Source of the DNA: a virus
Virus record (IMG/VR): IMGVR_UViG_3300035670_000026
Location: 32,001-96,000 of that record
Strand: one strand, 5' to 3'
DNA length: 64,000 bases
In this document: positions 22,695 through 52,225 of the stretch, piece after piece
Layout of the letters: every line of letters starts with the position of its first letter
How positions within the stretch are numbered: position 1 is the first letter of the stretch
Program-made: the position numbers and the translations under genes
The notes under the pieces: model-generated
The model's database searches: none
What the model was told of the DNA's origin: nothing
Seen by the model: the letters and a program-made list of their open reading frames with translations, nothing else

Positions 22695-22922
22695 ATGGCA
22701 AATATACCAGCAAACGCACTTGGAGTAGTAACCACAACATCTGTAACAGGCAGTTTTGCCGGTTTTACAGTAGTATCAGGTTCAGCTACTATTACAGGTT
22801 TAAAAGATGCTAATAATGTAGAATTAGCAGCTACAGATTGGGTTATACCAGCAGGATTTACTATCCCTATCTATGTAACTAGCGCTTCTCTTTCATCAGG
22901 AGCAATAATGCTTTACCCTTAA
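22695..22922 (+). CDS. small beta-rich virion protein (possible decoration protein)
   Basis: VTGSF, VSGSA, TSASL motifs; position in the head cluster. Confidence 0.6.
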   Translation: MANIPANALGVVTTTSVTGSFAGFTVVSGSATITGLKDANNVELAATDWVIPAGFTIPIYVTSASLSSGAIMLYP

Positions 22923-22934
22923 TATTTATAACAA

Positions 22935-23543
22935 ATGAAAACACTACAACAAGAATATCAACTTATAAAAGAGGGAAAAGGTAATAAAGACCATTTCCTT
23001 AAAATGGCTAGAAATATGTTTCCTGAATATATTGCTCATGGAAATGATTTTAATGCTGCTGTATCTATTTTAAAAAGTAAAAGTCTTTTAAGTGAAGCAG
23101 TAGGTGGTGTAGTAACTTTATCAACTCAACCTAACTGGTTTAAAATCTTTAATGATAATATTGCTGAAGCAGTAGGTGTTAAAGATAAAAAAGAGTATGG
23201 TGATCAAAATACATTTGAAAAAATTGATAAAGATGTAGCTAAAGATTTAGCAAATCAATTTGATAATAATAACCCTAAAAATATTGATAACCTTTATGGT
23301 CAATCATTTTTATTAGGTTATTTAACAGAAATGGGTGATCCTAAAAATGCTAAAAAAACAGTTGATGAATTAAAAGATATTGTAGCTAAAAACATGGCTA
23401 AAGATATCAATTACTACCATACAAATGCTTCATTCGGTGTTAAAGGAATTGGATACACTAAAGATTCAGTTGGAATGGGTGAACCTAAAGCACTAAAAGG
23501 AAAATATAAATCAAGTGGCTACGGCGATTTAGATAAAAAATAA
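22935..23543 (+). CDS. putative prohead core/internal protein
   Basis: Leader MKTLQQEYQLIKE resembles the T4 capsid-targeting sequence; LSE, IAE sites. Confidence 0.65.
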   Translation: MKTLQQEYQLIKEGKGNKDHFLKMARNMFPEYIAHGNDFNAAVSILKSKSLLSEAVGGVVTLSTQPNWFKIFNDNIAEAVGVKDKKEYGDQNTFEKIDKDVAKDLANQFDNNNPKNIDNLYGQSFLLGYLTEMGDPKNAKKTVDELKDIVAKNMAKDINYYHTNASFGVKGIGYTKDSVGMGEPKALKGKYKSSGYGDLDKK

Positions 23544-23546
23544 TTC

Positions 23547-24152
23547 ATGAAACAAGTATTAATTGAAACAATTCCGTTTTCAGTTGCTCCCATACAACTA
23601 ACTGAAGGTTTAAAAGCACCTTCTGGTAATCCTTTAGTTGAAGGAATACTTGCTACAGCTGAAGTTAAAAACGGAAACGGAAGATATTATCCTAGAGAAT
23701 TATGGGATAGAGAAATTAGTAAGTATACTGAAATTGTTAAAGAAAATAGAGCAACAGGTGAATTAGATCACCCTGATTCTTCAATTATTAACCTTAAAAA
23801 CGTATCACATATTATTAGAGATATTTGGTGGGACGGAGATAAGGTAATGGGTAAGTTAGAAATTTTACCTACCGTTTCTGGTAATATTTTAAAAGCATTA
23901 ATCGAAAACAATGTAACAGTAGGTGTATCATCTCGTGGTATGGGTTCATTAAAACAAATTGGTGAAACCTTAGAAGTACAAGATGATTTTGAATTACTTT
24001 GCTGGGATTTTGTTTCAACTCCTTCTAATCCAGGTTCATATATGCATTTGGTAAAAGAAGGTAAAGAATATATTGAAAAAGACGATTTTGCAAAAGTAAA
24101 TTCTATATTAACAGAAATACTTTGCGCTAATGGGACTTGTCCCGTTTTCTAA
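23547..24152 (+). CDS. prohead core protein protease (T4 gp21-like)
   Basis: NGNGRYY, GELDHP, VSH, GVSSRGMGS, DFVSTPS. Confidence 0.95.
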   Translation: MKQVLIETIPFSVAPIQLTEGLKAPSGNPLVEGILATAEVKNGNGRYYPRELWDREISKYTEIVKENRATGELDHPDSSIINLKNVSHIIRDIWWDGDKVMGKLEILPTVSGNILKALIENNVTVGVSSRGMGSLKQIGETLEVQDDFELLCWDFVSTPSNPGSYMHLVKEGKEYIEKDDFAKVNSILTEILCANGTCPVF

Positions 24153-24183
24153 GACGCCTGCTACCTTAGGCATTTTAAACCGT

Positions 24184-24226
24184 ACCCGTAAGCATACCAT
24201 AAGAACTGCTTGCGGGTCTTTTTTTT
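24184..24226 (+). terminator. intrinsic terminator-like hairpin
   Basis: ACCCGTAAGCA-N12-TGCTTGCGGGT followed by CTTTTTTTT. Confidence 0.7.
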
Positions 24227-24374
24227 CCACAATAGGCGACTTTAAAAAATTTTCATATATGTATATTCGTAATATGCGATTTTCTTATATCGCATCACGC
24301 TAATAAATTTTATTACGCTTCGACAATCGTCACTAATAAGCGTATTTCCAACATTTAATTTGAGGACAAAAAGT

Positions 24375-25535: not shown

Positions 25536-25569
25536 TTTAAACCAAATTTAAAAAACAAAAACAAAAAAA

Positions 25570-27330
25570 ATGTCACAAGTACAACAATTACTCGAAAGCG
25601 CAGCTGGCTCATGGAAGTCACTTCAGAGCGACGCTGCAAGATTATCTGGAAAGTGGACCAAAACAGGTCTTCTTGAAGGTCTTGGCGAGGTTGAAAAAAA
25701 TAACATGTCTATCTTGTTAGAAAACCAAGCTAAACAATTAGTAACTGAAAATAATACTATCTCTTCTAACTCATCATTCGTTTCTAACGGACAAGGTGAG
25801 AACTGGGCTGGTATTGCTCTTCCTTTGGTACGTAAAGTATTCGGTACTATCGTAGCAAAAGAATTCGTTTCAGTTCAACCAATGAACATGCCATCAGGTC
25901 TTGTGTTCTTCTTAGATTTCCAATACGGAAACAATAAGACACCATTTACTGCTGGTTCTTCTTTGTATGGTAACAGAAACACTGCTTCTCAATTCCCATT
26001 CTCTACTCCAGCTGCTGAAGGTGGTTTATATGGTGGTCCAGAAGGTCGTTTCACTTACGCTACTAACCAATTCTCAGGTTCAACTACATTAACCGGTTCA
26101 ATCGGTGGTGGTGCTGCTCCAACAGCTGCTGCTGGTGTTGCTGTAGTTACTTCAGCTTCATGGGCTGACTTAAACTTTGATTCTGCTTACTCAGCTTCTG
26201 TTGTTGCTGGTGAAATTTACGAAATCTTAGTTCCTACAGCTTCTACTTTATTACCATCATTTGACCAAGATGCAGTTCGTGGTTTCGTTGGTTCAGGTTC
26301 ACTTGCTAGTGGTATCTTTGCTCCAGCAGGTTTGTTACCAGCATTTACAAACTACAACTACACTAACAACACAATTGCTTTCTATTACACTGCTTCTGCA
26401 GCTGCAACTGCCGCTCAATTGTCAGGTTCAATAACGTTCTTCTACGAAAAAGCTGGTTCACAAGATGGTATTCCTTCCTTCTCAGGTGGTAATAACTTCA
26501 GCGGATCTGGTCGTGGTGATTTCGAAGCTTCAGGTTCTTTCTCAGTACCTAACGCTGCGTCTGCTACTCAAATCGTTATCCCAGAGATCAACGTTAGAAT
26601 GCAATCTCAAGCCATCACTGCTAAAACCAAGAAATTGAAGGCAGTATGGACTCCTGAATTTGCTCAAGACTTGGCTGCTTACCAGAACATCGACGCTGAA
26701 GCTGAATTGACTAACATTATGAGTGAGTACATTTCAATGGAAATTGATTTGGAAATCTTAGACATGTTGATCGAAGATGCTGCTGCTGCTACTGAGTACT
26801 GGTCAGCTATTAACAACCAAGTTTATAGCAACGGTGCTTTTGCTGCTAACTCTTCAGCTTTCTTTAACACTCAAGGTCAGTGGTTCCAAACTTTAGGTAC
26901 TAAAATCCAAAAAGTATCTAACAAGATCCACCAGTTAACTTTGAGAGGTGGTGCTAACTTCTTAGTAACTTCTCCTACAATCGCTACTATCCTTGAGTCA
27001 ATCCCAGGATTTGCTTCTACTAACAACGGTGAAGCTGATCAAATGGAATACGCTTTCGGTGTACAGAAAGTTGGTTCAGTAAATGGTCGTTACAAAGTTT
27101 ACAAAAACCCTTACATGACTGAAAACTTGATCCTTATGGGTTACAGAGGTTCTCAGTTCTTGGAAACTGGTGCTGTATTCGCTCCTTACATTCCGTTGAT
27201 CATGACTCCTCTAGTGTACGATCCTGATACCTTCACTCCACGTAAAGGTTTATTGACTCGTTACGCTAAGAAGATGTTACGTCCTGAATTCTATGGTAAG
27301 ATTTACATCAATGGTTTAAATACCATTTAA
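25570..27330 (+). CDS. major capsid protein (T4 gp23-like) with a Ser/Gly/Ala-rich insertion
   Basis: LPLVRKVF..VSVQPM..PSGLVF, KLKAVWTPEFAQDL, APYIPL, PRKGLLTRYA. Confidence 0.97.
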   Translation: MSQVQQLLESAAGSWKSLQSDAARLSGKWTKTGLLEGLGEVEKNNMSILLENQAKQLVTENNTISSNSSFVSNGQGENWAGIALPLVRKVFGTIVAKEFVSVQPMNMPSGLVFFLDFQYGNNKTPFTAGSSLYGNRNTASQFPFSTPAAEGGLYGGPEGRFTYATNQFSGSTTLTGSIGGGAAPTAAAGVAVVTSASWADLNFDSAYSASVVAGEIYEILVPTASTLLPSFDQDAVRGFVGSGSLASGIFAPAGLLPAFTNYNYTNNTIAFYYTASAAATAAQLSGSITFFYEKAGSQDGIPSFSGGNNFSGSGRGDFEASGSFSVPNAASATQIVIPEINVRMQSQAITAKTKKLKAVWTPEFAQDLAAYQNIDAEAELTNIMSEYISMEIDLEILDMLIEDAAAATEYWSAINNQVYSNGAFAANSSAFFNTQGQWFQTLGTKIQKVSNKIHQLTLRGGANFLVTSPTIATILESIPGFASTNNGEADQMEYAFGVQKVGSVNGRYKVYKNPYMTENLILMGYRGSQFLETGAVFAPYIPLIMTPLVYDPDTFTPRKGLLTRYAKKMLRPEFYGKIYINGLNTI

Positions 27331-27362
27331 TCTAAAGTAGACTAGGATAACTTTTCGAAATG

Positions 27363-27391
27363 AGAACCCCGCGCAAGCGGGGTTCTTTTTT
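27363..27391 (+). terminator. intrinsic terminator after the capsid gene
   Basis: AGAACCCCGC-GCAA-GCGGGGTTCT-TTTTT (GNRA loop). Confidence 0.9.
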
Positions 27392-27405
27392 CATATTTAT
27401 AACAA

Positions 27406-27858
27406 ATGAATAATTTAACAGCATTTAATTATAATCTAAACACTTCAACTTCTGGAGCTGTAGAAGATGGTAACGTATCATATGCTACTGCGTCGTATAT
27501 TGAATCTGGCTCATTTGGATTAACATGGGGATATGAAGTTTGTGCTATTAGTGGTTATACGTTTATAAGCGATTCATATACACAAAATTATTCACCTACA
27601 TCATCTGCTACCCCTATATTTTATGTCACGGCTACTACAAAATCGGTTGATGTTTTAGATACTATAAATAGATTACACGATAGAATCACTCAAACTCCAT
27701 TTACATATATTAATACCGCTTTAAATTGGATTAGTGGTAGCGACAAATATATTACTTTATATACTTGTAGTATTTACGATTACCCAGCAGATTTATTACA
27801 AGAAGACGGAAACTATTTATTACAAGAAGATACATCAAATATTAAGTTAGAATTTTAA
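27406..27858 (+). CDS. hypothetical virion protein
   Basis: Late motif at 27393; C-terminal LLQEDGNYLLQED duplication. Confidence 0.7.
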   Translation: MNNLTAFNYNLNTSTSGAVEDGNVSYATASYIESGSFGLTWGYEVCAISGYTFISDSYTQNYSPTSSATPIFYVTATTKSVDVLDTINRLHDRITQTPFTYINTALNWISGSDKYITLYTCSIYDYPADLLQEDGNYLLQEDTSNIKLEF

Positions 27859-27860
27859 TC

Positions 27861-28505
27861 ATGCCAAATTTACCTATATCCCAATTACCCTCAGCATCCG
27901 CACTATCACCAGATAATGTATTTGCTGTTGTTCAAAATGGTACAACAAAACAATCTCCTTATAGTTTTATTTTGTATGCTCCTACAAATAACTACGGACT
28001 ATTTAATCAAACAAGCTCAAGCCCACCAGTAACAGGAGTTGCTCCTTTCTCAGGTAGTTTAATTGATGGGGGTATTGGAACATTATCTATCCCAGCTAAT
28101 GGATTTATTAAAGGAGATGCTTTTCAAGCTACTTTATCTGGAATAATAAGTGCTGAAAATAATAAAACTCTTGAAATTACTATTAAAGCAGGTAGTGCAA
28201 TTTTAACAGACACTGGAATTATTTCTATGCCTGGAATTAGTACTAAAAATTGGAGAATGGATATAGATTTTTCTATTAATGAAATAGGAGGAGCCGGAAC
28301 AGCAGAAGTATCTACAGCAGGAACTATTACTTTTAGAAAAGATGCATCTGGAGAAGTATTAACTGAAATTTTTAGTACAATTAATAATACAACTTTTGAT
28401 ACTACAACAACAAATACATTAGAAATTATTGCTGAATGGGGTAATTCTCCATCAGCTGCTAGTTCTATTTATACTCAAAACTTTACTTTATTAAAAGTTT
28501 ACTAA
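27861..28505 (+). CDS. hypothetical virion/fibre-associated protein
   Basis: N-terminal PISQLP..VVQNGTTK motif seen in fibre-type proteins; Thr/Ser/Gly rich. Confidence 0.6.
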   Translation: MPNLPISQLPSASALSPDNVFAVVQNGTTKQSPYSFILYAPTNNYGLFNQTSSSPPVTGVAPFSGSLIDGGIGTLSIPANGFIKGDAFQATLSGIISAENNKTLEITIKAGSAILTDTGIISMPGISTKNWRMDIDFSINEIGGAGTAEVSTAGTITFRKDASGEVLTEIFSTINNTTFDTTTTNTLEIIAEWGNSPSAASSIYTQNFTLLKVY

Positions 28506-29499: not shown

Positions 29500-30245
29500 T
29501 GGCACAAACACTTCAAGATTGGCTAAACGGTGAGGTAAAACAATTACAAAAACTTCCCGTAGGCGAGTTATCTAATACATTTTTCTTTAGAGACCCAATT
29601 CGCCCAATGTATATTGACCATGAGCATTTTTATTCACCCGCTGATGGTACAATTTTGTATCAAAAATACGTTCAAGATCCTACTTCACCTATAATTGAAA
29701 TTAAAGGTATAGATTATACATTACAAGATGTATTAGGTGATGATGAATACAATAAACCATCGTTAGTTATCGGTATATTTATGTCATTTTACGACGTTCA
29801 CATCAACCGCATACCCTATGGTGGAATATTAAAATACAAACCACTAGACGTTATAGAATCAACCAACAAACCAATGTTAGCGGTTGAAAAAGATATTCTA
29901 AATAAAATTGTTAATCCTAACAATATGGAATATCTTAAACATAACGAGAGAATGTGGAATCAAATTTACTCACCCTCTTTAGATTACACTTATTACCTTG
30001 TTCAAATTGCAGATGAGGATGTAAATGTAATTGCTCACTTCACAAATTCACAAAACGATACATTTGCTCAAAATGAAAGATTTTCTTTAATAAGATGGGG
30101 GTCGCAAGTCGATCTAGTACTCCCGTTAGATGAACGATTCGATTTTGACCTTGTTTTAGATAACCACATGCATGTAAATGCTGGATTAGACAAACTAGTT
30201 AAAATTAATTTTAAAGACCATGAACCAACAAAATCACGAAGATGA
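29499..30245 (+). CDS. phosphatidylserine decarboxylase-like proenzyme
   Basis: FFFR, SPADG, IFMSFYDVHINRIP, WGSQ autocleavage motif. Confidence 0.85.
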   Translation: MAQTLQDWLNGEVKQLQKLPVGELSNTFFFRDPIRPMYIDHEHFYSPADGTILYQKYVQDPTSPIIEIKGIDYTLQDVLGDDEYNKPSLVIGIFMSFYDVHINRIPYGGILKYKPLDVIESTNKPMLAVEKDILNKIVNPNNMEYLKHNERMWNQIYSPSLDYTYYLVQIADEDVNVIAHFTNSQNDTFAQNERFSLIRWGSQVDLVLPLDERFDFDLVLDNHMHVNAGLDKLVKINFKDHEPTKSRR

Positions 30246-30954: not shown

Positions 30955-30995
30955 TAAGGAACCCTAGCTTTTTAATATTTATATCCAAAAAGCGA

Positions 30996-31421
30996 ATGGC
31001 AACTCTTACTACACAAATTTACGAAATTTTAACGCTTGATGGAAACGATGTTGGATCATCCCAAATCCAAACTATTAACGGCATAAACTATGTAGATAAT
31101 AGAGTTTTAAGCGTACCTACAGGGTCGGTAACTACTATATTTTCAATGGATGCTACTCCAGGTGCTGGTACTTTTGTAACCAGCAGTATTAAATACATTA
31201 GAGTATCTAATATTAGTACAGTTAATGCCCCAATTCAACTTGTTGTATCCTCTTCAACTGAAGCAATGAGCTATTTTGTAACAACAGGTAGTTCATATAT
31301 GTTATCAACAAGTAAAATGACAGGTAGTGTAGGAGGATTATTATTTGACGATATTAAATCAGTTAAAGTTGAACCTTCTGGTAGTGCAGCAACTTTAGAA
31401 TATTATATAGCAACAACTTAA
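30996..31421 (+). CDS. hypothetical virion protein
   Basis: Late motif at 30975; several TGS/SGS motifs. Confidence 0.7.
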   Translation: MATLTTQIYEILTLDGNDVGSSQIQTINGINYVDNRVLSVPTGSVTTIFSMDATPGAGTFVTSSIKYIRVSNISTVNAPIQLVVSSSTEAMSYFVTTGSSYMLSTSKMTGSVGGLLFDDIKSVKVEPSGSAATLEYYIATT

Positions 31422-31427: not shown

Positions 31428-32660
31428 ATGGCATCTACAGTAATTCCAATTTGGCCCGGTTCAGCATCTTTTGCTCAAGTATCTGCTTCTTATTATGGAA
31501 CAGGTACGTGGCCACCTCCTACTCCATTTGGGTTTTATGATAGCGATCCTGAATTTAAAACCGATGCCAATAAAGTATCTAATTTTTGTGCTTTACACTT
31601 AGGTTATCCTATTGAAAATGTAGAATTACAAGAAATTAACTTCTTTGCTGCTTTTGAAGAAGCAGTAACTGTATATGGAAACGAATTATATGCTTTTCAA
31701 TTAAGAGATAACTACTTATCTTTAGAAGGAGCTTCTGATAGAATTGATGTTAATAATTCAATTTTCACTCCTTCAATGGATACTATTGTTAGATTGTCTC
31801 AACAGTATGGTGAAGAAGCAGGAGTTGGTGGTAATGTAACTTGGTATAAAGGCCAATTAACTTTAGTCCCCGGTCAACAAAGATACGATTTAACTAAATG
31901 GGCTGAAGATTTAGGAATTACAGGTGGTATTGAAATTAAAAACGTTTGGTATCAACCACCCCCTGCTGTTTCTCAAATGTATTCTTCTTATTTAATAGGA
32001 CAAGGAGGACTAGGAGGGGTACCAGCAGCAGGTATGTTTGGACTTGGTATGGGTGGATATGCGGGGTATTTAATGATGCCTACAAGTTTTGCTATGCAAA
32101 ATATTCAAGCTATTGAAATGCAAAACCAGGTAATGCTTTCAAATTATACCTTTAATGTTATAAACAATATATTATCTGTATTTCCAATTCCCGGAACTGG
32201 TGATTTTGAATGGGGTATAGATGATGATGGTGGATTAGGATATGGACATTATTTAGTATTTGACTTTATTAAAATCCAAGATAGAATTGATGCTTCTTTT
32301 GCTGACGGTACTAATAAAATTACCAATACCTCAGATGCTCCTTATTTAAATCCTACTTATGCTAAAATTAATTCAATAGGTAGAAGTTGGATTTTCGAAT
32401 ATACTTTAGCTAAAGCTAAAGAAATGTTAGGTTTAACTCGTAACAAATATTCTCAAATACCAATCCCTGGAGCTGAAGTAACTTTAAATGGTGATTCGTT
32501 AGCTACGCAAGGTATTGATGAACAAGAAAAATTAATTACAAGATTAAGAGAATATTTTGATCAAACTTCTCGCCAAGCTTTACTTGAAAGAAGACAAGCA
32601 GAATCAGTAGCTCGAGTAGCTGAAATTAGTCAAGTACCAATGACAATTTTTATAGGATAA
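31428..32660 (+). CDS. neck protein (T4 gp13-like)
   Basis: LGYPIENVEL; WIFEYTLAKAKEMLG..RNKY..IPG..VTLNG. Confidence 0.85.
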   Translation: MASTVIPIWPGSASFAQVSASYYGTGTWPPPTPFGFYDSDPEFKTDANKVSNFCALHLGYPIENVELQEINFFAAFEEAVTVYGNELYAFQLRDNYLSLEGASDRIDVNNSIFTPSMDTIVRLSQQYGEEAGVGGNVTWYKGQLTLVPGQQRYDLTKWAEDLGITGGIEIKNVWYQPPPAVSQMYSSYLIGQGGLGGVPAAGMFGLGMGGYAGYLMMPTSFAMQNIQAIEMQNQVMLSNYTFNVINNILSVFPIPGTGDFEWGIDDDGGLGYGHYLVFDFIKIQDRIDASFADGTNKITNTSDAPYLNPTYAKINSIGRSWIFEYTLAKAKEMLGLTRNKYSQIPIPGAEVTLNGDSLATQGIDEQEKLITRLREYFDQTSRQALLERRQAESVARVAEISQVPMTIFIG

Positions 32661-41877: not shown

Positions 41878-41899
41878 AATATTTATATAAAAACATTAA

Positions 41900-44800
41900 A
41901 TGGCTAAAAATGTAACCATAATACCAGGTTCGGGTTCGTTAGAATTTACAGATTCTAATGGCAAGTCAATTAAAATGGTTCTTACCGGATCATTAAATGA
42001 CACTTTAATGTTTGTAAGTGGTAGTGTTCCTATTATGGAAATAAATCCCACTAATGGTTTGGATACAAATAAACCTCCTAAATTTAATGAGGTACCAGAA
42101 GACAATAATTTACCAAATTACCTTGTATACAACGTAAATAATGGGTCTATAGGTTATAGATCAATAGCAAATGGTTCATCTGGTACAGCAGGTACTACAG
42201 GCACTAGTGGACCAAGTAGAACATCAGGCACATCAGGCACATCAGGAACAAACGGTTCTGCTGGTACAAATGGAGCATCAGGAGCAAGCCGTACTTCAGG
42301 TACATCAGGAACAAGTGGTACAGCAGGTAGTGCGGGTACTAGTGGTGCTGCACGGACAGCAGGTTCAAGCTCAGCATCACAAACTTCAGGTACAAGTGGT
42401 ACAAGCGGTACTTCAGGAGCTACTCAAAACGCTGGTTCTAGTTCTGCATCACGGACTTCAGGTACATCCGGTACTAGTGGAACAAATGGTTCTACAGGTA
42501 CAAATGGAGCCGCAGGTGCTTCAGGTACTTCTAGAACCTCAGGTACTAGTGGTACAAATGGTAGTGCTGGTACAAATGGTAATGCCGGTGTCTCAGGGGC
42601 TAGTTCAACCTCAGGTACTTCAGGGACTAGTGGTTCCTCAGGCACTTCAGGTTTAGCACAGACCGCAGGTTCAAGCTCAAACAGCCGGACTTCAGGTACA
42701 AGTGGTACAAGCGGTACTTCAGGTGCTGCACGGAATGCTGGTACAAGCTCTGCATCTCAAACCTCAGGAACCTCAGGTACAAGCGGTACAAATGGTAGTA
42801 TAGGTACAGGAGGTGCAGCTGGAGCATCAGGACAATCACGGACTTCTGGTACAAGCGGAACTTCAGGTACAGCAGGTAGCGCAGGTACTTCAGGTGCTTC
42901 ACGTACTGCCGGTTCAAGCTCATCTTCACAAACCTCAGGAACTAGTGGTACAAGTGGTACCTCAGGAGCAACCCAATCTGCAGGTTCAAGCTCAGCATCA
43001 CAAACTTCAGGTACAAGCGGCACAAGCGGTACTAATGGTAGTGCTGGTACAAACGGAATAGCAGGAGCATCAGGTGTAAGCCGAACTTCAGGAACGTCAG
43101 GAACAAATGGCTCAAATGGTACTTCAGGTGCTAATGGGGCTTCAGGAAATAGTAGAACCTCAGGAACTAGTGGTACAAGCGGTACTAATGGTTCATCAGG
43201 TACAAATGGTAACGCAGGTGTTTCAGGAGTTTCTCCAACCTCAGGTACAAGTGGAACTAGTGGTTCTTCAGGAACAAGTGGTTTAGCACAGACCGCAGGT
43301 TCAAGCTCAAACAGCCGGACTTCAGGTACAAGTGGTACCTCAGGTACATCAGGAGCTGCACGGAATGCAGGTTCAAGTTCTGCAAGCTTTACTTCAGGTA
43401 CAAGTGGTACCTCAGGAACAAATGGTAGTGCAGGTACAGGAGGTGCAGCTGGAGCATCAGGACAATCACGAACTTCTGGTACTTCAGGAACAAACGGTTC
43501 AGCAGGTACAAACGGAGCTTCAGGAGCTTCACGAACTTCAGGCACTAGTGGTACTTCAGGTACAGCAGGTAGCGCAGGTACTTCAGGTGCTGCACGGACA
43601 GCAGGTTCAAGTTCATCATCTCAAACCTCAGGTACAACAGGTACAAGTGGTACCTCAGGAGCAACCCAATCTGCAGGTTCAAGTTCTGCATCACGGACTT
43701 CAGGTACTTCCGGTACCTCAGGTACAAATGGTTCAGCTGGTACTAATGGCAACGCCGGTGCTTCAGGCGTAAGCCGGACTTCAGGTACTTCAGGTACAAA
43801 TGGTTCAAGTGGTACTTCAGGAGCAAATGGTGCCTCTGGAGTATCAAGAACTTCCGGAACTAGTGGTACTAATGGCTCTTCAGGTACAAGTGGTAATGCT
43901 GGAGCTTCAGGAGTTGCTTCAACTTCAGGCACAAGTGGTACTTCAGGTTCTTCAGGTACTTCAGGTTTAGCACGAACAGCAGGACAAAGTACCTCATCTC
44001 AAACCTCAGGTACAAGTGGTACAAATGGTTCAAGTGGTGCTGGTAGAACAGCTGGTACAAGTTCAGCATCACAAACTTCAGGTACAAGCGGCACAAGCGG
44101 TACTTCAGGTGCTGTACAAACAGCAGGTTCAAGCTCAAACAGTCGGACTTCAGGTACAACAGGTACTTCAGGAACATCAGGTGCAAACCAAAATGCTGGT
44201 TCAAGCTCAGCATCACGGACTTCAGGTACATCAGGTACTTCAGGTACAAATGGTAGTTCGGGTACTTCAGGTATTTCAGGTGCTGCTGGTGTAAGTGGAG
44301 CAAGCCAAACCTCAGGTACAACAGGTACAAGTGGTACCTCAGGAGCAACCCAATCTGCAGGTTCAAGTTCTGCATCACGGACTTCAGGAACAAGTGGCAC
44401 TTCAGGAACGTCAGGAGCTACACGGACATCAGGTTCAAGTTCATTATCACAAACCTCAGGTACAAGTGGTACAAATGGTTCAAGTGGTGCTGGTAGAACA
44501 GCTGGTACAAGTACCGCCTCTCAAACTAGTGGTACAAGTGGTACAAGTGGTACAGGAGGTGCAACTACAAACGCAGGTGCTAGTTCAGCATCACGGACTT
44601 CAGGCACAAGTGGTACTAGCGGTACTTCTGGACAAGGACGGAGTGCAGGTACAAGTACAGCAAGTTTTACCTCAGGCACATCAGGTACAAGTGGTTCAAC
44701 AGGTGCTGCACGTACTGCAGGACAAAGTACAGCATCACAAACCTCAGGTACTTCAGGTTCAAGTGGAACATCAGGTGCGGCCACAGTCGCAGGTTCAAGT

Positions 44801-45328
44801 TCAAACAGCCGAACTTCAGGTACAACAGGTACTTCAGGAACATCAGGTGCTGCTAGAACAGCTGGACAAAGTTCAGCAAGCCGGACTTCAGGAACCAATG
44901 GTACATCAGGTACTTCAGGTGCTGCAAGAACTTCAGGTACAAGTTCAGCTTCTGGAACTTCAGGAACAAGTGGCGTATCAGGTACCTCAGGTTTATCATT
45001 TAATGGTACTAGTGGTATTAGTGGTGGTGTATTTACTAACCAACCAGATTATTTAGTTAAAACTACAGGAACAACTACAATACAAAGTGTATCATTTTTA
45101 TCAGTTTCAGGTGCTACTTTAAATGTAACAGGTACTGTTGCTACTAGTTTTTTACAAGTAGATAATGCAGGTGGGTTTTTTAATTTTCAACCCCCAGGTG
45201 GTCCTAACGGAGTAGATCAAGTTTATACAAATATAAACCCAAATTTTGTATTAGGTGAACCAGATGTTTGGTTGATAGTAAACGTAAATGGAATTGATTA
45301 TGTATTTCCGGGATATGCAGCTCCGTAA
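41900..45328 (+). CDS. second Gly-Thr-Ser triplet-repeat fibre protein (1142 aa)
   Basis: About 950 aa of triplet repeats with unique N- and C-termini. Confidence 0.85.
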   Translation: MAKNVTIIPGSGSLEFTDSNGKSIKMVLTGSLNDTLMFVSGSVPIMEINPTNGLDTNKPPKFNEVPEDNNLPNYLVYNVNNGSIGYRSIANGSSGTAGTTGTSGPSRTSGTSGTSGTNGSAGTNGASGASRTSGTSGTSGTAGSAGTSGAARTAGSSSASQTSGTSGTSGTSGATQNAGSSSASRTSGTSGTSGTNGSTGTNGAAGASGTSRTSGTSGTNGSAGTNGNAGVSGASSTSGTSGTSGSSGTSGLAQTAGSSSNSRTSGTSGTSGTSGAARNAGTSSASQTSGTSGTSGTNGSIGTGGAAGASGQSRTSGTSGTSGTAGSAGTSGASRTAGSSSSSQTSGTSGTSGTSGATQSAGSSSASQTSGTSGTSGTNGSAGTNGIAGASGVSRTSGTSGTNGSNGTSGANGASGNSRTSGTSGTSGTNGSSGTNGNAGVSGVSPTSGTSGTSGSSGTSGLAQTAGSSSNSRTSGTSGTSGTSGAARNAGSSSASFTSGTSGTSGTNGSAGTGGAAGASGQSRTSGTSGTNGSAGTNGASGASRTSGTSGTSGTAGSAGTSGAARTAGSSSSSQTSGTTGTSGTSGATQSAGSSSASRTSGTSGTSGTNGSAGTNGNAGASGVSRTSGTSGTNGSSGTSGANGASGVSRTSGTSGTNGSSGTSGNAGASGVASTSGTSGTSGSSGTSGLARTAGQSTSSQTSGTSGTNGSSGAGRTAGTSSASQTSGTSGTSGTSGAVQTAGSSSNSRTSGTTGTSGTSGANQNAGSSSASRTSGTSGTSGTNGSSGTSGISGAAGVSGASQTSGTTGTSGTSGATQSAGSSSASRTSGTSGTSGTSGATRTSGSSSLSQTSGTSGTNGSSGAGRTAGTSTASQTSGTSGTSGTGGATTNAGASSASRTSGTSGTSGTSGQGRSAGTSTASFTSGTSGTSGSTGAARTAGQSTASQTSGTSGSSGTSGAATVAGSSSNSRTSGTTGTSGTSGAARTAGQSSASRTSGTNGTSGTSGAARTSGTSSASGTSGTSGVSGTSGLSFNGTSGISGGVFTNQPDYLVKTTGTTTIQSVSFLSVSGATLNVTGTVATSFLQVDNAGGFFNFQPPGGPNGVDQVYTNINPNFVLGEPDVWLIVNVNGIDYVFPGYAAP
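42173..45030 (+). repeat. degenerate 9-bp coding repeat
   Basis: Directly visible. Confidence 0.95.
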
Positions 45329-45333
45329 TTAAA

Positions 45334-45365
45334 CTTGGATATTTAAATATTTTTATTTATATTTA
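45334..45365 (+). promoter_or_regulatory. Bacteroidota sigma-A-like promoter for the glycosyltransferase cassette
   Basis: CTTG(45334)-N20-TATATTTA(45358), same spacing as at 13866. Confidence 0.45.
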
Positions 45366-45381
45366 TTGGAAATATTCTGTT

Positions 45382-47373
45382 ATGAAAAAATTGTTATATA
45401 TTGCTCCACATTTATCTACAGGTGGACTACCTCAATATTTAACTAAAAAAATTGAATTACTTAAAGATGAATTCGACATCTACCTTGTAGAATGGGCAGA
45501 TGTTACGGGTGGTGTTTTAGTAGTAACACGAAATAAAATTCTTAAATTAGTTAAACCTGATAATTTTTTTACATTAGGTGAAAATAAAATAGAATTAATT
45601 GATATAATTAATCGTGTTCAACCCGATATTGTTCATACTGAAGAAATTCCTGAGTTTTATATGGATTTTGATGTAGCATCTAAATTATATAAAACAGACC
45701 GCAAATATATTATTGTAGAAACCTCACACGATTCATCATTTGATACAACCCAGAAAAAATTTTACCCAGATAAATTTATGTTTGTATCAAATTGGCAAAT
45801 TGAACAATATAAAGATATTGATATTCCACGCGTATTAGTCGAATATCCTATCGAATATATTGAACGCCCTAACCGCGAAGAGGCACTGCGTAAATTACAA
45901 TTAGACCCCGCTAAAAAACACATTTTACACGTTGGGTTATATACCTCTCGCAAAAATCAAGCTGAATTTTTTGAATATGCTCGTTCAATGCCTGAATATG
46001 AATTTCATAGTTTAGGTAATAGAGCTGATAATTTTAAATGGTATTGGGAACCATTATCTAATGATACTCCTCCAAATTTAACCTGGTGGAATGAACGCAC
46101 AGATGTAGATGCTTTTTATCAAGCAATGGATTTATTTTTATTTACATCTCGTGGTTCAGCAAATGATAAAGAAACAATGCCTTTAGTTATTCGTGAAGCA
46201 ATTTCATACCAAACTCCAGTTTTGATTTATAATTTAGGTGTTTATCAAAATTATTTTGATAAATTTAAAGGAGTAAAATATCTTGAATTTGATAATTTTG
46301 AAAAAAATTGTGAATTAATTAAAGAAGTTGTAGAAACAAAAGAAACAATCGATATTGAACAAGAAGCAATTATTATTTCTACATATCCTATTCAACAAAG
46401 TGTAATAGATTCTACAAAAGAATGCATTGAATCTTTTAAACAAACAGGAAGAAAAATTATATTAACTTCTCACGTTCCTATTCCTGAAGAATTACAAGAA
46501 TTAGTTGATTATTGTGTTTATGATAAAAATAATTTATTAACTAAACACGATTTTTATTATCATTGCTGGGTTGATTATGGACATTTTAAAGTAAATACAA
46601 TTTTACAAGGTGAAGACAATGATGTTTATCATGGTCCTGCTGTTTATACAAATTATTATAACGCAGCTTCATTAGCAAAAAATATAGGAACTAAAAAATT
46701 ATTTTTTATTAATTACGACTATATCCTTACTAACCCAGAATTTATAAATGAAATTTCTTTTAAATTAAATAAGAAAAAAGCATTTGTTGATGAAAGAAAA
46801 TATTCAGAGGGTGAAGTAAGTAGTACTTTCTTTATAGGTATTCAAACAGATTTATTCTTTAAAACTCACGAATTTATTTCTACAGCTGCTGGATATGATA
46901 ATTTAAAACATAAAGTAGGTAGTTTATCTAATGGTTATGAAAATATATTCTATTTTGCTTTACAACCTTTTAGAAATCAAATTCATATAGAATCAGCTGA
47001 AAATTGGGATAAATTAATTAGTGAAAATTTTAAACACAATAATTTTTCTCGTATAGAATATACTACTGTTTTACCAACTAATGTTGAAAATCATTTTGCT
47101 ATTTACTATCAAAATTCAAATGAAGTAGATAGTAGAAATTTAGTTGTAAGCGCTATAGAAGAAGGACAAGAAATTTTTAATGAAACTATTAACATTACTA
47201 GTAAATTTGCTTGGTATAGACTTCATCAAATCAATGATAAAGAACTTATAATTAATTTTGAGTTTTATGATGCTCATAATAATAAGTTTTTAAGTAAAAA
47301 AACTATTGTTGTAAATAAAGATTACATTGATAATAAATTACAAACAAACGGACTTTTAGAAAAAGTATTATGA
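45382..47373 (+). CDS. GT4-like (GT-B) glycosyltransferase fused to a second GT-like domain
   Basis: HLSTGGLPQY, VGLYTSRKNQ, DLFLFTS..ETMPLVIREA; second domain IILTSH..VDYCVYD. Confidence 0.85.
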   Translation: MKKLLYIAPHLSTGGLPQYLTKKIELLKDEFDIYLVEWADVTGGVLVVTRNKILKLVKPDNFFTLGENKIELIDIINRVQPDIVHTEEIPEFYMDFDVASKLYKTDRKYIIVETSHDSSFDTTQKKFYPDKFMFVSNWQIEQYKDIDIPRVLVEYPIEYIERPNREEALRKLQLDPAKKHILHVGLYTSRKNQAEFFEYARSMPEYEFHSLGNRADNFKWYWEPLSNDTPPNLTWWNERTDVDAFYQAMDLFLFTSRGSANDKETMPLVIREAISYQTPVLIYNLGVYQNYFDKFKGVKYLEFDNFEKNCELIKEVVETKETIDIEQEAIIISTYPIQQSVIDSTKECIESFKQTGRKIILTSHVPIPEELQELVDYCVYDKNNLLTKHDFYYHCWVDYGHFKVNTILQGEDNDVYHGPAVYTNYYNAASLAKNIGTKKLFFINYDYILTNPEFINEISFKLNKKKAFVDERKYSEGEVSSTFFIGIQTDLFFKTHEFISTAAGYDNLKHKVGSLSNGYENIFYFALQPFRNQIHIESAENWDKLISENFKHNNFSRIEYTTVLPTNVENHFAIYYQNSNEVDSRNLVVSAIEEGQEIFNETINITSKFAWYRLHQINDKELIINFEFYDAHNNKFLSKKTIVVNKDYIDNKLQTNGLLEKVL

Positions 47374-48317
47374 AAATATGCCAAGTAAATCCAGGTTGTG
47401 GTATTCCTATTCCTCCTCCAGCATGGGGAGCAATTGAAAAAATTGTATGGGAATTTATGTGCAATCTAAAAAAATTAGGACACGAAGTAGATTTAAAATG
47501 GGCCAATGAAGTACAACCAGGTGAATATGATGTTGTGATGGTTCACGTTGCTAATTTAGCAATTGAATTAGCTAACAGAGGTATTCCCTATGTATTTCAA
47601 CATCACGACCACCATGCATATCATTACGGAAAAGATTCATTTATTTATAAAGAAAATAGAGAAGCAATGGAACGCTCTGTTTTTTCTTTAGTTCCTGCTC
47701 GTTATTTAGTTGAATATTTTGATTTACCTAATGTGTATTATTTTTCACACGGGGCGGATACAAAAAGTTTTTATCCAAATCAAACACCTCCATTAATGCA
47801 TAATTTATTAATGGTTGCAAATAATGGTTTAGGTGGTTATGGAGCATATGATAGAAAAGGATTTGGATTAGGAGTCCAAATAGCAATGTCTCGTAATTTA
47901 CCTATTACAATTGCTGGTCCTAAAAATAATGAAAAATGGCTTAAAGATAATCCTTGGGTATTAGGTTATCCTAAATTAACAATGGCTTGGGATATTCCAA
48001 ATGAGGAATTAAGACAACTTTATACATCACATACAATATTTTTACATCCAAGTGAATTAGAAGCTGGACATCCTAATTTAACCTTACTAGAGGCAGCAGC
48101 TTGTGGTTTACCTATTTTAGGATGGATTGAGATGGAAACTACATTTCATGGATTATGGAGAGCACCTCGTGATTTAAACTTGCTTCTTAAAGGATTAGAT
48201 GTTATTATTAATGAATATGGAGACTATAGACAACGTTCACTTAATACAGCAAAAGAATTATCATGGTTAAATCGCTCAAAAGAATTAATAGAATTATTTA
48301 AAAAACATGCGCACTAA
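47370..48317 (+). CDS. GT4-like glycosyltransferase
   Basis: IPPPAWGAIEKI, RKG, HPSELEAGHPNLTLLEAAACGLP. Confidence 0.9.
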   Translation: MKICQVNPGCGIPIPPPAWGAIEKIVWEFMCNLKKLGHEVDLKWANEVQPGEYDVVMVHVANLAIELANRGIPYVFQHHDHHAYHYGKDSFIYKENREAMERSVFSLVPARYLVEYFDLPNVYYFSHGADTKSFYPNQTPPLMHNLLMVANNGLGGYGAYDRKGFGLGVQIAMSRNLPITIAGPKNNEKWLKDNPWVLGYPKLTMAWDIPNEELRQLYTSHTIFLHPSELEAGHPNLTLLEAAACGLPILGWIEMETTFHGLWRAPRDLNLLLKGLDVIINEYGDYRQRSLNTAKELSWLNRSKELIELFKKHAH

Positions 48318-48993
48318 ATTTTATACAAAAAACGACCAAATAATTGATATTTCAACTTGGGATACATCCTTAAGCCAAAATGAAATGGGAGATAAATATG
48401 GTTGGGAAGGATCTATGGCTTTTGGAAATTTAATTCACGATGAATTAAATCAATGGGGTCCTGGTATGCAATATGGAGATATTTATCTTGATTTAGGAGC
48501 AAATATTGGTATGTCTGCTCTTAGAGCAGAATCAAAAGGTTGCTCAAAAATATACTGTGTAGAACCAGACCCAGGAGTATTTGAAGCTTTAAATAAAAAT
48601 AAAAACTATAATTGGATTGTTGATAATATAGCTATTGGTTCCGAAAGAGGATACATTGACATTCCAAAATGGCCTAACTGGTGGGATACTCAACCTATCC
48701 AATGTATTACTTTAGATGAATTTTTTGCAAAACATAATCTTACAAAAGTAGATTACATGAAAGTTGATATTGAAGGACATGAAAAATATGTTTTTAATAA
48801 TGTTAGTCAAATTACATGGGATAAAATTAATAAAATATTTTTTGAATTTCATGAAGATGTAGATACATTAAGCACTGAACAACGAAATGAAGAAAGAATA
48901 AAATTCTGCCAATTCTATTCAGATAAAGGTTTTAATAATCATCATGTCGATTTAGGATACTATCAAAGTTTTATTTATTTTTGGAAATCATGA
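48307..48993 (+). CDS. FkbM-family SAM methyltransferase
   Basis: LDLGANIG, CVEP, TLD, MKVDIEGHE, FEFH. Confidence 0.9.
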   Translation: MRTKFYTKNDQIIDISTWDTSLSQNEMGDKYGWEGSMAFGNLIHDELNQWGPGMQYGDIYLDLGANIGMSALRAESKGCSKIYCVEPDPGVFEALNKNKNYNWIVDNIAIGSERGYIDIPKWPNWWDTQPIQCITLDEFFAKHNLTKVDYMKVDIEGHEKYVFNNVSQITWDKINKIFFEFHEDVDTLSTEQRNEERIKFCQFYSDKGFNNHHVDLGYYQSFIYFWKS

Positions 48994-50192
48994 AAGAAGT
49001 TTTAATAAACGAATATAACAATACTGAAATTTTAAGGATATCTCATAGAGAACCTGAAAATACTTTTAATATTAATTTTTTAGATGGACCTTTTGTAGAA
49101 GTTTTAGGTCCTTTACAAAAAGAATATCTTATTAAATTTGTTAATACTAAAACTAATCGTGTTTTATTCGAGAATACTATTACTAATAATATGTGGACTC
49201 GTTCTAATATAAAATACTTAGTTAAATGGCGTATTGAAATTTATGATAAAAAAACAGGTGAAAAAATTATTGAACATACATTTAATCCTCAAGGAAAACG
49301 AGTTTATATTCATTTAGATTCATCTGCTGTAGGTGATACATTAGCATGGTTTCCTCTTATTGAAGAATTTAGAAAAGAAAATAATTGTGAAGTAGCTTGT
49401 TCAACTTTTCATAATGAATGGTTTGAAAAAAACTACCCTAAATTAGAATTTATAAAACCAGGTACTGAAGTACGTGATTTATATGCTATGTTTACTATTG
49501 GGTGGTTTTATGATAATAAAAAAGTTGTATTTGATAGAACACCAATTGATTTTAAAAAATATCCTTTACAACAAACCGCTACAGAAATTTTAGGATTAAA
49601 ATATAAAGAAGTTAAACCTCAATTAGTAACTCCTGAACGAAAAACAGATATTGAAGGAAAATATGTTGTAATTGCTCCCCATGCTTCAGCACATGCTAAG
49701 TATTGGATGTATCCAGGAGGATGGCAAACAGTTATTGATTATTTAAACGAAAAAGGATATAAAGTAGCAATGATTACTGGTGAACCTTTAAATGATGATT
49801 GGCACGATTCAAAACTTGGAGGTACATTAACTGGAGTAATCGATAAAACAGGATTTCACATTGATTTAGAAGATAGAATGATAGACATTCGTGATGCTTC
49901 TGCTTTTATTGGTTTAGGAAGTGGATTAAGTTGGTTATCTTGGGCATTAAATACTCCTACAGTTTTAATTTCCGGATTTAGTTATCCATATACTGAATTT
50001 CAGGATTGTGAAAGAATTTACCCTAAAGATCCTAAAACATGTAGAGGATGTTTTAACCGCCATTGGTTAAACCCAGGAGATTGGGAATGGTGTCCTGATC
50101 ATAAAAATACTCCTCGTCAATTTGAATGTACAAAAGTTATTGAACCTTCTCAAATAATAGAATCTCTTAATAAACTTCTTAATATTTATTAA
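48990..50192 (+). CDS. Aah/TibC-like autotransporter O-heptosyltransferase family protein
   Basis: NINFLDGP.VE, SAVGDTLAWFP, KYW, FIGLGSGLSWL.WA..P.VLISGFS....EF; four-Cys motif CRGC..WCP.H..FECTK. Confidence 0.85.
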   Translation: MKEVLINEYNNTEILRISHREPENTFNINFLDGPFVEVLGPLQKEYLIKFVNTKTNRVLFENTITNNMWTRSNIKYLVKWRIEIYDKKTGEKIIEHTFNPQGKRVYIHLDSSAVGDTLAWFPLIEEFRKENNCEVACSTFHNEWFEKNYPKLEFIKPGTEVRDLYAMFTIGWFYDNKKVVFDRTPIDFKKYPLQQTATEILGLKYKEVKPQLVTPERKTDIEGKYVVIAPHASAHAKYWMYPGGWQTVIDYLNEKGYKVAMITGEPLNDDWHDSKLGGTLTGVIDKTGFHIDLEDRMIDIRDASAFIGLGSGLSWLSWALNTPTVLISGFSYPYTEFQDCERIYPKDPKTCRGCFNRHWLNPGDWEWCPDHKNTPRQFECTKVIEPSQIIESLNKLLNIY

Positions 50193-50193
50193 C

Positions 50194-50442
50194 ATGGAAA
50201 ATAAAGTTTTAACACCAGAAGAGTTATCTAAATTACAAGAACTAAATAATAAAAGAGGAGATTTAGTTGAACGTTTTGGAGTTATCGAAATCAATATTCA
50301 AGATTTAGAACTTCAAAAAGAACAATTAATCGAAGAGTTATCACAAATTAAAAAAGCCGAGTTAGAAATTGGAGCTTTGTTACAACAAAAATATGGTGAT
50401 TCAAACATAAATTTATCCACCGGAGAAATAACTCCAAGATAA
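50194..50442 (+). CDS. small coiled-coil protein
   Basis: Heptad-rich; KYG..INL.TGE C-terminus. Confidence 0.7.
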   Translation: MENKVLTPEELSKLQELNNKRGDLVERFGVIEINIQDLELQKEQLIEELSQIKKAELEIGALLQQKYGDSNINLSTGEITPR

Positions 50443-50494
50443 TATTTTGAAAAGACTTAACATATTTATAACAAAACATTAACATAATCTAACA

Positions 50495-52225
50495 ATGGCA
50501 GAAACATTAATATCTCCTGGTGTATTAGCGTTAGAAAACGACAATTCATTTGTATCGTCTCAACCTGTAACCGTAGGAGCAGCTATTATCGGTCCTACTG
50601 TAAAAGGTCCTGTAAACGTACCAACAATTGTTACATCTTATAGCGATTACCAAAATAAATTTGGTACTACTTTTTTAAGTGCAAGCCAAGTTTACAGCTA
50701 CTTTACTTCAATTGCTGCTTACAACTATTTCAACAATGGTGGTCAAACCTTATTAGTTTCAAGAGTAGTAACTGGTTCATTTACTAGCGCAACTACAGCT
50801 ACTGGTTCAGGTACTCCCATAATAGAATCAACTAATATTGAAGCTTTAGTATTAAAAACTATTTCTCAAGGTGAAATTATGAATAACACTGGATCTATGG
50901 ATATCAGTGGTTCTTTAGTTTCTGGTTCAGTCGATAATATTAGATGGCAAGTTACTAACAGAGATACATCATCTGGTACATTTAGTTTATTAGTTAGACA
51001 AGGTGATGATAATGCAAATACTCCAATTGTACTAGAAACTTGGACTAATTTATCAATGGACCCAACAGCTCCTAACTATGTATCTAGAATAATTGGTGAC
51101 CAATACAGACAATATAATTCAACAGATAACCAAATTGAAGTAATTGGAACTTATCCTAACAACTCAAGATATGTCTATGTATCTAGTGTTAATACTCCTA
51201 CACCATTATATTTTGATAACAATGGTTTAGCTAAAGCAGCATTTACCGGTTCAATTCCTATAAATGGTAGTGGTTCATTTGGAGCAGCTACCGGTGCTTT
51301 ATTTGTAGGAGTTGCTGATTATTACAATGCTATTGATTTAGCTACAACAACTCCACAAGGTATTTCAGCAAGTGCTTACACTAATATGGTTAATTTATTA
51401 GGTAATGCTGATGATTATAGATATAATGTATTATTAACCCCTGGTTTATTCTCTTCAACAGCTAATTTAGGTGCTTCTCAAGTAACTACAGCAATCAATA
51501 ATACTCAAAATAGAGGAGATGCAATTTACGTAACCGATTTAGTACCATTTAGTTCAAGTATCTCAGAAGTAACTACTCAAGCAAATGCTAAAAATACTTC
51601 ATATGCTGCTGCTTACTGGCCTTGGTTACAAACCATCGATCCAGATTCAGCTCAATTAGTATGGGTACCAGCTTCAACAATGATTGGTGGTGTTTATGCT
51701 TACAACGATAACGTAAGTGAGCCATGGTTTGCACCAGCAGGTATTAACAGAGGTGGATTAGGTAACGTAGTAAGAGCTGAAAAGAAATTGTCTCAAGCTA
51801 ACCGCGATACTTTATATACAAATAAAGTTAACCCAATTGCAACATTCCCTGGAACAGGAGTTGTAGTATACGGACAGAAAACATTACAAACTAAAGCATC
51901 TGCACTTGACCGTGTAAACGTTCGTAGATTGTTAATCCAACTTAAGTCTTATATTTCTCAAGTAGCTCAAAACTTAGTGTTCGAACAAAACACAATCGCT
52001 ACAAGAAACCAATTCTTAAGCCAAGTTAACCCATACTTAGAATCAGTACAACAACGTCAAGGTTTGTACGCGTTTAAGGTGATCATGGACGATAGCAATA
52101 ATACAGCTGATGTAATTGATAGAAACCAGATGGTAGGTCAAATTTATATTCAACCTACTAAAACAGCAGAATTTATTTACTTGGATTTCAACATCTTACC
52201 TACAGGTGCTACTTTCCCAGCGTAA
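50495..52225 (+). CDS. tail sheath protein (T4 gp18-like)
   Basis: ISPGV, GPTVKGP, WFAPAG.NRG, GQKTL, RVNVRRL, P.KTAEFI. Confidence 0.97.
   Translation: MAETLISPGVLALENDNSFVSSQPVTVGAAIIGPTVKGPVNVPTIVTSYSDYQNKFGTTFLSASQVYSYFTSIAAYNYFNNGGQTLLVSRVVTGSFTSATTATGSGTPIIESTNIEALVLKTISQGEIMNNTGSMDISGSLVSGSVDNIRWQVTNRDTSSGTFSLLVRQGDDNANTPIVLETWTNLSMDPTAPNYVSRIIGDQYRQYNSTDNQIEVIGTYPNNSRYVYVSSVNTPTPLYFDNNGLAKAAFTGSIPINGSGSFGAATGALFVGVADYYNAIDLATTTPQGISASAYTNMVNLLGNADDYRYNVLLTPGLFSSTANLGASQVTTAINNTQNRGDAIYVTDLVPFSSSISEVTTQANAKNTSYAAAYWPWLQTIDPDSAQLVWVPASTMIGGVYAYNDNVSEPWFAPAGINRGGLGNVVRAEKKLSQANRDTLYTNKVNPIATFPGTGVVVYGQKTLQTKASALDRVNVRRLLIQLKSYISQVAQNLVFEQNTIATRNQFLSQVNPYLESVQQRQGLYAFKVIMDDSNNTADVIDRNQMVGQIYIQPTKTAEFIYLDFNILPTGATFPA

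Follow-up and report, generated by a model that had tools for sequence, protein, structure and literature searches.

The Far-T4 phages are a group set out by Roux et al. 2015 (PMC4360716). Here, we report a recurrent tripeptide, [ST]-G-S, on the outward-facing virion proteins of a phage assigned to this group. The window analyzed (64,000 nucleotides) spans bases 32001 to 96000 of a 149,817-bp phage contig (IMG/VR virus record IMGVR_UViG_3300035670_000026; GC content, ~31%), with every gene on one strand. It encodes terminase, portal, protease, scaffold, a gp23-like major capsid protein (MCP), neck proteins, two giant collagen-like fibers, a four-gene glycosyltransferase (GT) cassette, and sheath, tube, and baseplate proteins. 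Outward-facing head, neck, sheath, and fiber proteins were confirmed to carry the tripeptide four to five times above expectation; the tag characterizes the Far-T4 clade and is independent of the cassette in the window. In our reading, held with a probability of roughly 0.4, a trans-acting factor common to the clade recognizes the tag or uses it as an acceptor, most plausibly for O-glycosylation by clade-conserved soluble glycosyltransferases encoded outside the window.

The tripeptide in virion proteins

All 8,000 tripeptides were scanned against per-protein composition over the whole 149.8-kb genome, with the two collagen giants left out. SGS ranked first (48 observed versus 12.9 expected; z, 9.8; runner-up, z of 5). 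TGS stood at 2.2×, SAS at 1.7×, and TAS at 1.4×, and the same scan gave no enrichment for SGT (0.75×), SGG (0.66×), or SSS and TST (1.1×). Ser was favored about fivefold over Thr at position 3 (48 SGS versus 9 SGT). A model that had read only the letters of the window had proposed [ST]-[GA]-S as a glycosylation sequon repeated over surface-exposed virion proteins (the original prediction). Every motif that it listed was found in its place, and the ordered tripeptide is real, but the Gly form dominates, with SAS and TAS well behind.

The 81 [ST]GS sites were hydrophobic at −1 and hydrophobic or Ala at +1, which gives hydrophobic-[S/T]-G-S-hydrophobic as the motif core; most of the signal lay in the Gly form, and the variant with Ala was weaker. 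Codons at these sites were varied and matched background usage, which points to selection at the protein level and rules out a motif acting in DNA. Recent paralogy of the carrier proteins was rejected as well, as all-against-all BLAST joined only two C termini.

The carriers in the window were as follows (motifs observed versus expected; 2,000 whole-protein shuffles per protein).

22695..22922 (+), 75-aa small open reading frame (ORF) of the head module; 3 motifs (VTGSF, VSGSA, TSASL) versus 0.42 by shuffles
25570..27330 (+), MCP, gp23-like (phrog_138; E, 5e-71); 11 [ST][GA]S versus 2.0 (p, 5e-4)
27406..27858 (+), 150-aa orphan ORF directly after the MCP gene; 3 motifs versus 0.46
27861..28505 (+), 214-aa Ser/Thr-rich ORF with homologs in 6 loci; 2 motifs versus 1.0 (p, 0.27; alone not significant)
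30996..31421 (+), 141-aa conserved neck-region ORF; 4 motifs versus 0.77 (p, 0.004)
31428..32660 (+), head-tail adaptor or head-completion protein (phrog_211; gp13 in the original prediction); 2 motifs (residues 12 and 18) versus 0.6
34171..41877 (+), 2568-aa collagen-like fiber; 4 motifs in the N-terminal head (~125 aa), body of (G-T-S)n
41900..45328 (+), 1142-aa collagen-like fiber (Pfam Collagen; E, 1.3e-47); 3 motifs in the N-terminal head (~95 aa)
50495..52225 (+), tail sheath (phrog_23; E, 2e-75); 9 motifs versus 1.6 (p, 5e-4)

Outward position was judged by domain. All MCP motifs fell in the variable insertion (residues 138 to 323; ~nt 25981 to 26541) and all sheath motifs in the variable N-half (residues 62 to 293; ~nt 50678 to 51376), with none in internal proteins. 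Two of the small ORFs are conserved genes in which motif number is maintained: ORF 22695 was kept in 10 related loci with 2 to 4 motifs each, and ORF 30996 carried 3 to 5 apiece in 22. For ORF 27406, no homolog was found among 80 related loci. Motif density was also high in a 1658-aa protein beside the baseplate wedge gene (22 versus 2.3) and in its 353-aa neighbor (9 versus 1.1); PHROGs and Pfam gave no names for most of the motif-rich baseplate and fiber proteins. In the fibers, the expected motifs were present in both N-terminal heads, but the collagen-like bodies were depleted (36 versus 103 and 24 versus 43), because the register there is G-T-S.

The predicted rarity in enzymes and internal proteins held. 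Enzymes had 0 or 1 motif each, at chance, and nonstructural proteins as a class were at expectation. Terminase, portal, protease, tube, hub, and tape measure had 0 motifs in every clade genome; were they as enriched as the outer proteins, they should hold about ten.

Enrichment over composition, likewise predicted, was borne out for MCP and sheath by the whole-protein shuffles above and again by shuffles confined to blocks of 10 to 60 residues. Across 35 structural ORFs, the latter gave SGS 43 versus 8.8, [ST]GS 68 versus 16.5, and [ST][GA]S 94 versus 30.8 (z, 12 to 14, and about 12 with 10-residue blocks); restricted to one region, they gave 11 versus 1.7 in the MCP insertion and 9 versus 1.4 in the sheath N-half. 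Ser, Thr, and Gly make up more of the carriers than of the enzymes, yet chance or a by-product of such composition is refuted by the persistence of the excess under local-composition shuffling and by the flat counts of SGT, SGG, SSS, and TST.

Distribution in the Far-T4 clade

MCP and sheath trees were concordant. Both grouped this phage with its closest cultured relatives, Flavobacterium phage vB_FspM_immuto (immuto; MCP, 65%; sheath, 54%) and Microcystis phage Mel-JY01 (MCP, 46%; sheath, 49%), and with two farther ones, LR756508 (uncultured, 484 kb) and Rhodothermus phage RM378, leaving T4 and HSE3 outside; the base of the clade was an unresolved polytomy. A closer contig, G001 (93% complete), had 81% identity in the MCP and 74% in the sheath. 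With an MCP that groups with RM378, apart from the T4-likes, the phage is classed on these trees as an aquatic "Far-T4" myovirus.

The tag is a trait of this clade, present in this phage, G001, immuto, Mel-JY01, and RM378. RM378, the most distant clade member, still had SGS at 2.59× and TGS at 2.8×. No tag was found in T4 (SGS, 0.94×; TGS, 0.38×), Bacillus phage HSE3 (0.69×), or cyanophage S-PRM1 (1.3×). LR756508 lies in the clade and has a syntenic Far-T4 structural module, yet it showed no excess (SGS, 0.69×; 0 motifs in both sheaths). The two sheaths of LR756508 are 824-aa paralogs about 1 kb apart (locus L302, 42463 to 44937 and 45952 to 48426). In this phage, G001, immuto, and RM378, 31 to 38% of the motifs had hydrophobic residues on both sides, compared with a background of 12 to 17% and with 0 to 10% in controls; the flank signal of Mel-JY01 was weak (0.18 versus 0.13).

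Descent of a handful of domains does not account for the excess, since lineage-specific proteins were equally enriched: proteins without a homolog in this phage stood at 2.2 to 2.8× in each relative, equal to the common ones, compared with 0.7× in T4 and HSE3. Several large fiber-like proteins are among them. Two such proteins in G001 are encoded by ORF 48394 (1135 aa; [ST]GS, 21 versus 5.0) and ORF 54197 (858 aa; 12 versus 4.0). G001 (L157 to L164) also had a strong additional excess of TAS, ASY, and SYA (ASY, 53 versus 9.5), which suggests a T-A-S-Y repeat. Avoidance of deamidation-prone Asn-Gly and Asp-Gly turns was considered as a cause of the tag and rejected, NG and DG being near expectation in G001, immuto, and Mel-JY01.

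Motif number is maintained while positions turn over. The MCPs of 73 orthologs held 438 motifs versus 126 expected; the best-kept sites were residues 208 (66/73) and 274 (54/73), together with 169 and 195, and Gly and Ala interchanged at conserved sites. Each of 98 distinct sheath orthologs had 2 to 9 [ST]GS versus 0.6 to 1.7 expected. In 101 sheaths, motifs started in 69 alignment columns, at 7.8 ± 1.8 motifs per protein, with 54% of instances in six columns and 27% in rare columns. The best-kept sheath sites were 143 (motif in 91/101, SGS in 90), 62 (SAS or SGS in 79/101), and 259 (75/101).

The head-neck block of the window also contains a 244-aa ORF (30220 to 30954) whose immuto ortholog (60% identical) is annotated as PhoH-like; its place is kept in immuto and Mel-JY01.

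The glycosyltransferase cassette and the collagen-like fibers

The cassette occupies the stretch between the fiber genes and the sheath gene, immediately upstream of the latter, and comprises the following.

45382..48317 (+), two GT4-family glycosyltransferases (663 aa and 315 aa; PF00534, PF13692)
48307..48993 (+), FkbM-family methyltransferase (PF05050; E, 6.6e-16)
48981..50192 (+), homolog of TibC/Aah-type (BAHT) protein O-heptosyltransferases (PDB 4rap, TibC; PF01075)

ORF 48981-50192 is, by alignment, a convincing TibC/Aah homolog. Homology to 4rap_A was full length (E, 8.3e-55; query 24 to 399 on chain 20 to 386), with the catalytic base of TibC (Asp110) and the sugar-binding residues Lys230, Arg286, and Trp305 kept and a further sugar-binding residue, Thr226, replaced by Ser. 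A predicted iron-binding Cys cluster aligned as CRGC, WCP, and FEC with the CYGC, WCP, and FEC of TibC. Pro300, the stereoselectivity residue of TibC, is Gly here, and the donor sugar may therefore differ. Both GT4 genes accompany the TibC-like gene in related loci. Among 50,697 phage records, the TibC-like gene is rare (Mel-JY01 and three uncultured megaphages), yet it occurs on 232 IMG/VR contigs. In Mel-JY01, the GT4, FkbM, and TibC-like parts are fused into one 1226-aa protein (L001, 4750 to 8430).

Outside the window, at genome positions 132142 to 132894 (L299, 14142 to 14894), lies a gene for a 250-aa PfkB-family sugar kinase, possibly HldE-kinase-like, which may supply activated heptose to the TibC-like enzyme. 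Its only homolog among the compared genomes was in cassette-positive contig G003 (42%), and the DegT, RmlD-like, DUF707, and epimerase genes around it were likewise absent from G001 and immuto.

The original prediction had implied that the motif is tied to this cassette. By that reading, the cassette would glycosylate capsid, neck, and sheath at the motif; the cassette's place next to the sheath gene, the apparently intact TibC homolog, and the fact that the Ser residues modified by TibC on folded beta structure are followed by Gly or Ala (PMC4358343) all speak for it. Comparison with relatives largely refuted the idea, which we now hold very improbable. The complete immuto genome has no GT9 at all and no TibC-like enzyme, and none was found on the 93%-complete G001 contig. 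With collagen-like residues masked, the genome-wide SGS excess persisted without the cassette (G001, 2.98×; immuto, 2.65×) much as with it (this phage, 3.15×; Mel-JY01, 2.77×). The MCP of cassette-free G001 held 10 motifs versus 2.1 expected, and [ST]GS in the sheath averaged 6.0 in 63 loci with the cassette upstream and 5.6 in 13 without it (Mann-Whitney p, 0.78). The cassette in the window does not read the motif, and the tag is independent of it; the expectation, named beforehand, that the motif would be absent or less frequent in relatives lacking the cassette failed. G003 has the cassette and SGS at only 1.14×, but its value as a cassette-positive, motif-negative contrast is weakened: the contig is just 52% complete, and both the MCP and the sheath tree put it outside the clade.

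What the cassette co-occurs with instead is collagen-like ORFs (20/3/1/6 among 30 sheath loci with enough upstream sequence; Fisher p, 9e-4). The masked collagen-like residues numbered 2,830, 461, and 727 in three cassette-positive genomes and 0 in two cassette-negative ones. Both fiber ORFs of the window have the long uninterrupted G-x-y tracts that define collagen-like proteins (651 and 216 triplets), 40% of the triplets being GTS, with T-S-G occurring 336 times. Upstream of the sheath gene, the cassette with the TibC-like gene and the genes of the (G-T-S)n fibers travel together as a single module (34171 to 50192; related loci L004 to L156), indicating the fibers as the likely substrate of the enzyme. 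TibC modifies Ser in N-S-G-G and T-S-A-A of TibA (PMC4358343), sites that the T-S-G of the fibers resembles; together with the abundance of T-S-G, this makes it more likely that the cassette serves the fibers. We take it to be a separate, mobile and exchangeable module, most likely one that modifies collagen-like (G-T-S)n fibers.

GC content rises to 45 to 47% over the fiber genes (34171 to 45328) versus ~31% elsewhere, presumably from Gly/Thr/Ser repeat codons and not from foreign origin. In Mel-JY01, an 805-aa open frame (L001, 635 to 3052, +) holds 37 [ST]GS and collagen-like G-T-S stretches; the deposited annotation at the same place gives a minus-strand gene (739 to 2298) and a short plus-strand gene, and the record may be misannotated.

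Candidate readers, structural context, and known systems

An order-specific, outward-facing, clade-wide tag that is also found on unrelated, lineage-specific proteins and is missing from other myoviruses and from the in-clade LR756508 is best explained by a trans-acting reader. The proposal of an acceptor sequon keeps this much of its footing: an ordered motif does exist and is restricted to virion proteins that face outward, the pattern that such a reader would impose, whereas the adjacent cassette as reader is lost. Every clade member with a motif excess carries glycosyltransferases, which leaves room for glycosylation by other, clade-conserved ones. Two loci outside the window are candidates.

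Genome 124498-127237, GT4 pair of 481 and 439 aa (GT481, GT439)
Genome 129518-130159, 213-aa GT2

Gene-content comparison showed GT481, GT439, and GT2 to be common to this phage, G001, immuto, and Mel-JY01; RM378 has a GT481-like gene and GT2s, and the GT4 pair and GT2 were absent from T4, HSE3, and S-PRM1. GT481 belongs to a virus-only GT4 family (ESM Atlas); it was found in 7 of 50,697 phage records, all Far-T4, and in 3/3 complete clade contigs tested. Its best solved relative is the putative glycosyltransferase B736L of chlorovirus NY-2A (3oy2; E, 2e-10). LR756508 has a GT481-like gene at 30% only, with neither GT439 nor GT2; lacking two of the three enzymes as well as the excess, it agrees with a link between these glycosyltransferases and the motif.

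The motif statistics, the distribution over proteins and genomes, and the independence from the cassette are results; a reader of the motif, its nature as a glycosyltransferase, and the choice of Ser within the motif are inferences from them. The Far-T4 clade places the tag on the MCP insertion, the outer domains of the sheath, neck and decoration proteins, baseplate proteins, and fiber heads. In the proposed mechanism, the soluble GT481/GT439 pair and GT2, as candidate readers, would O-glycosylate one Ser of the tag in the cytoplasm, once the subunits have folded and ahead of their assembly. A reader of another kind would leave the same statistics and distribution, which do not specify its chemistry. 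The tag might be phosphorylated or acylated, recognized by a chaperone of assembly, or bound, as Ser-lined surface strands, by a ligand from the host or the environment. We consider this unlikely. The orthologue comparison gave no clade-specific kinase, acyltransferase, or chaperone candidate, and the clade-specific enzymes that stood out were glycosyltransferases.

Several observations weigh against glycosylation of the tag. In orthologs the central Gly is the best-kept residue and the flanking Ser swap to N, D, T, A, and G (e.g., NGT, DGN, SGA), which fits ordinary turns and was counted against an acceptor. The motif Ser are barely better conserved than the other Ser of the same domains. Switching between the TCN and AGY families of Ser codons was seen at nonmotif Ser columns too and is hence uninformative on Ser-specific selection. 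The hydrophobic flanks place the motif within folded beta structure. On the enzyme side, RM378 apparently has only one of the two GT4 genes, the polytomy at the base of the clade means that a single gain or loss could explain the codistribution of glycosyltransferases and motif, and the three glycosyltransferases could instead act on DNA or on the host surface.

Much of this would suit a structural idiom without any modification, a small-residue Ser-Gly-Ser connector between hydrophobic strand residues, favored by the beta-rich outer domains and fibers of the lineage. Such a connector would be passed on in conserved columns and, folding well, would arise again in new loops. We rate it nearly as likely as the acceptor site. 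The conserved Gly, the exchange of flanking Ser with the classic turn formers N, D, T, and G, the hydrophobic residues on both sides, and the concentration of 54 to 56% of instances in a few positionally conserved columns all favor it. The AlphaFold2 (AF2) model of the sheath matched T4 gp18 and was confident over the N-terminal two-thirds (pLDDT, ~90); several sites in it lay at strand ends or hairpins. The MCP model (overall pLDDT, 56; insertion, 70 to 85) was used for rough context only. Predicted contexts were mixed, with strand interiors, strand ends or hairpins, loops, and helix N-caps, so that a single structural element (e.g., a type II' hairpin) was unsupported, and the strand interiors and helix caps among them also count against a connector. 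A preference of physical origin should moreover be seen in all phages, but T4, HSE3, and the in-clade LR756508 have outer proteins without it. Turn propensities do not predict the preference for Ser over Thr at position 3, and the interchange of Gly and Ala at conserved MCP sites and the equal enrichment of nonhomologous, lineage-specific proteins are likewise at odds with the idiom.

A broader proposal builds on glycosylation of the tag and is put forward tentatively, at a level that we would call somewhat doubtful. Far-T4 phages, which are common in waters worldwide, would sugar-coat the whole particle by a self-encoded, cytoplasmic O-glycosylation code, in which the virus-only GT4 pair and GT2 read hydrophobic-[S/T]-[G/A]-S-hydrophobic on folded subunits, every outward-facing protein, newcomers included, evolves the tag, and some lineages add a module of TibC-like, GT4, FkbM, and PfkB genes that puts a further glycan on collagen-like G-T-S fibers.

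As an acceptor site, the tag would give tailed phages of Gram-negative or aquatic hosts their first protein glycosylation code defined by sequence. Each particle would offer thousands of sites, and most aquatic viromes contain the clade. So large a sugar coat would bear on the stability of the particle, on adsorption, on recognition by grazers or immune systems, and on the sugar-nucleotide cost of infection. With three cultured clade members (immuto, Mel-JY01, and RM378), the hypothesis is directly testable. If the tag is only a structural idiom, it is still a useful signature of outward-facing virion proteins in unannotated Far-T4 contigs. With the tag split off from the TibC-like cassette, a second hypothesis also gains in sharpness, namely that the collagen-like fibers are what the cassette serves.

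Freeman et al. are said to have described, in Cell Host Microbe in 2023, mycobacteriophage virions glycosylated by phage-encoded glycosyltransferases. Common to that system and the one proposed here are soluble glycosyltransferases of the phage's own and, as proposed targets, the major repeated proteins of the particle. There, the phages are actinobacteriophage siphoviruses and the sites reportedly lie in C-terminal extensions of capsid and tail-tube subunits; here, the candidate sites in unrelated aquatic Far-T4 myoviruses are short ordered tripeptides inside folded outer domains of many proteins.

BAHTs (TibC/Aah) act in the cytoplasm on a folded beta structure, where they modify Ser adjoining Gly or Ala (PMC4358343). 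ORF 48981-50192, a full-length homolog with aligned catalytic and Fe-finger residues, belongs with them by alignment, and the BAHT mode of action could in principle apply to the tag. Unlike in TibC/Aah systems, the co-occurring candidate substrate is a collagen-like G-T-S fiber; no autotransporter turned up, though none was sought systematically.

The GT481/GT439 genes recall GtfA/GtfB, which act on serine-rich repeat adhesins (O-GlcNAc), in being an adjacent GT-B gene pair (~480 and 440 aa) and in the Ser-small-Ser character of the acceptor-like sequences. No specific GtfA homology was found beyond the GT-B fold (4pqg; E, 0.009 over 64 residues), and, unlike in the adhesin systems, the tripeptides are isolated and hydrophobically flanked, not long S-x-S-x tracts, with no accessory Sec system.

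Chlorovirus glycans are N-linked at atypical sequons, in a eukaryotic-viral system that is experimentally proven. The Far-T4 case differs in being a proposal drawn from genome sequences; its likeness to the chloroviruses (PBCV-1 group) is that a virus-encoded, host-independent machinery would coat the MCP.

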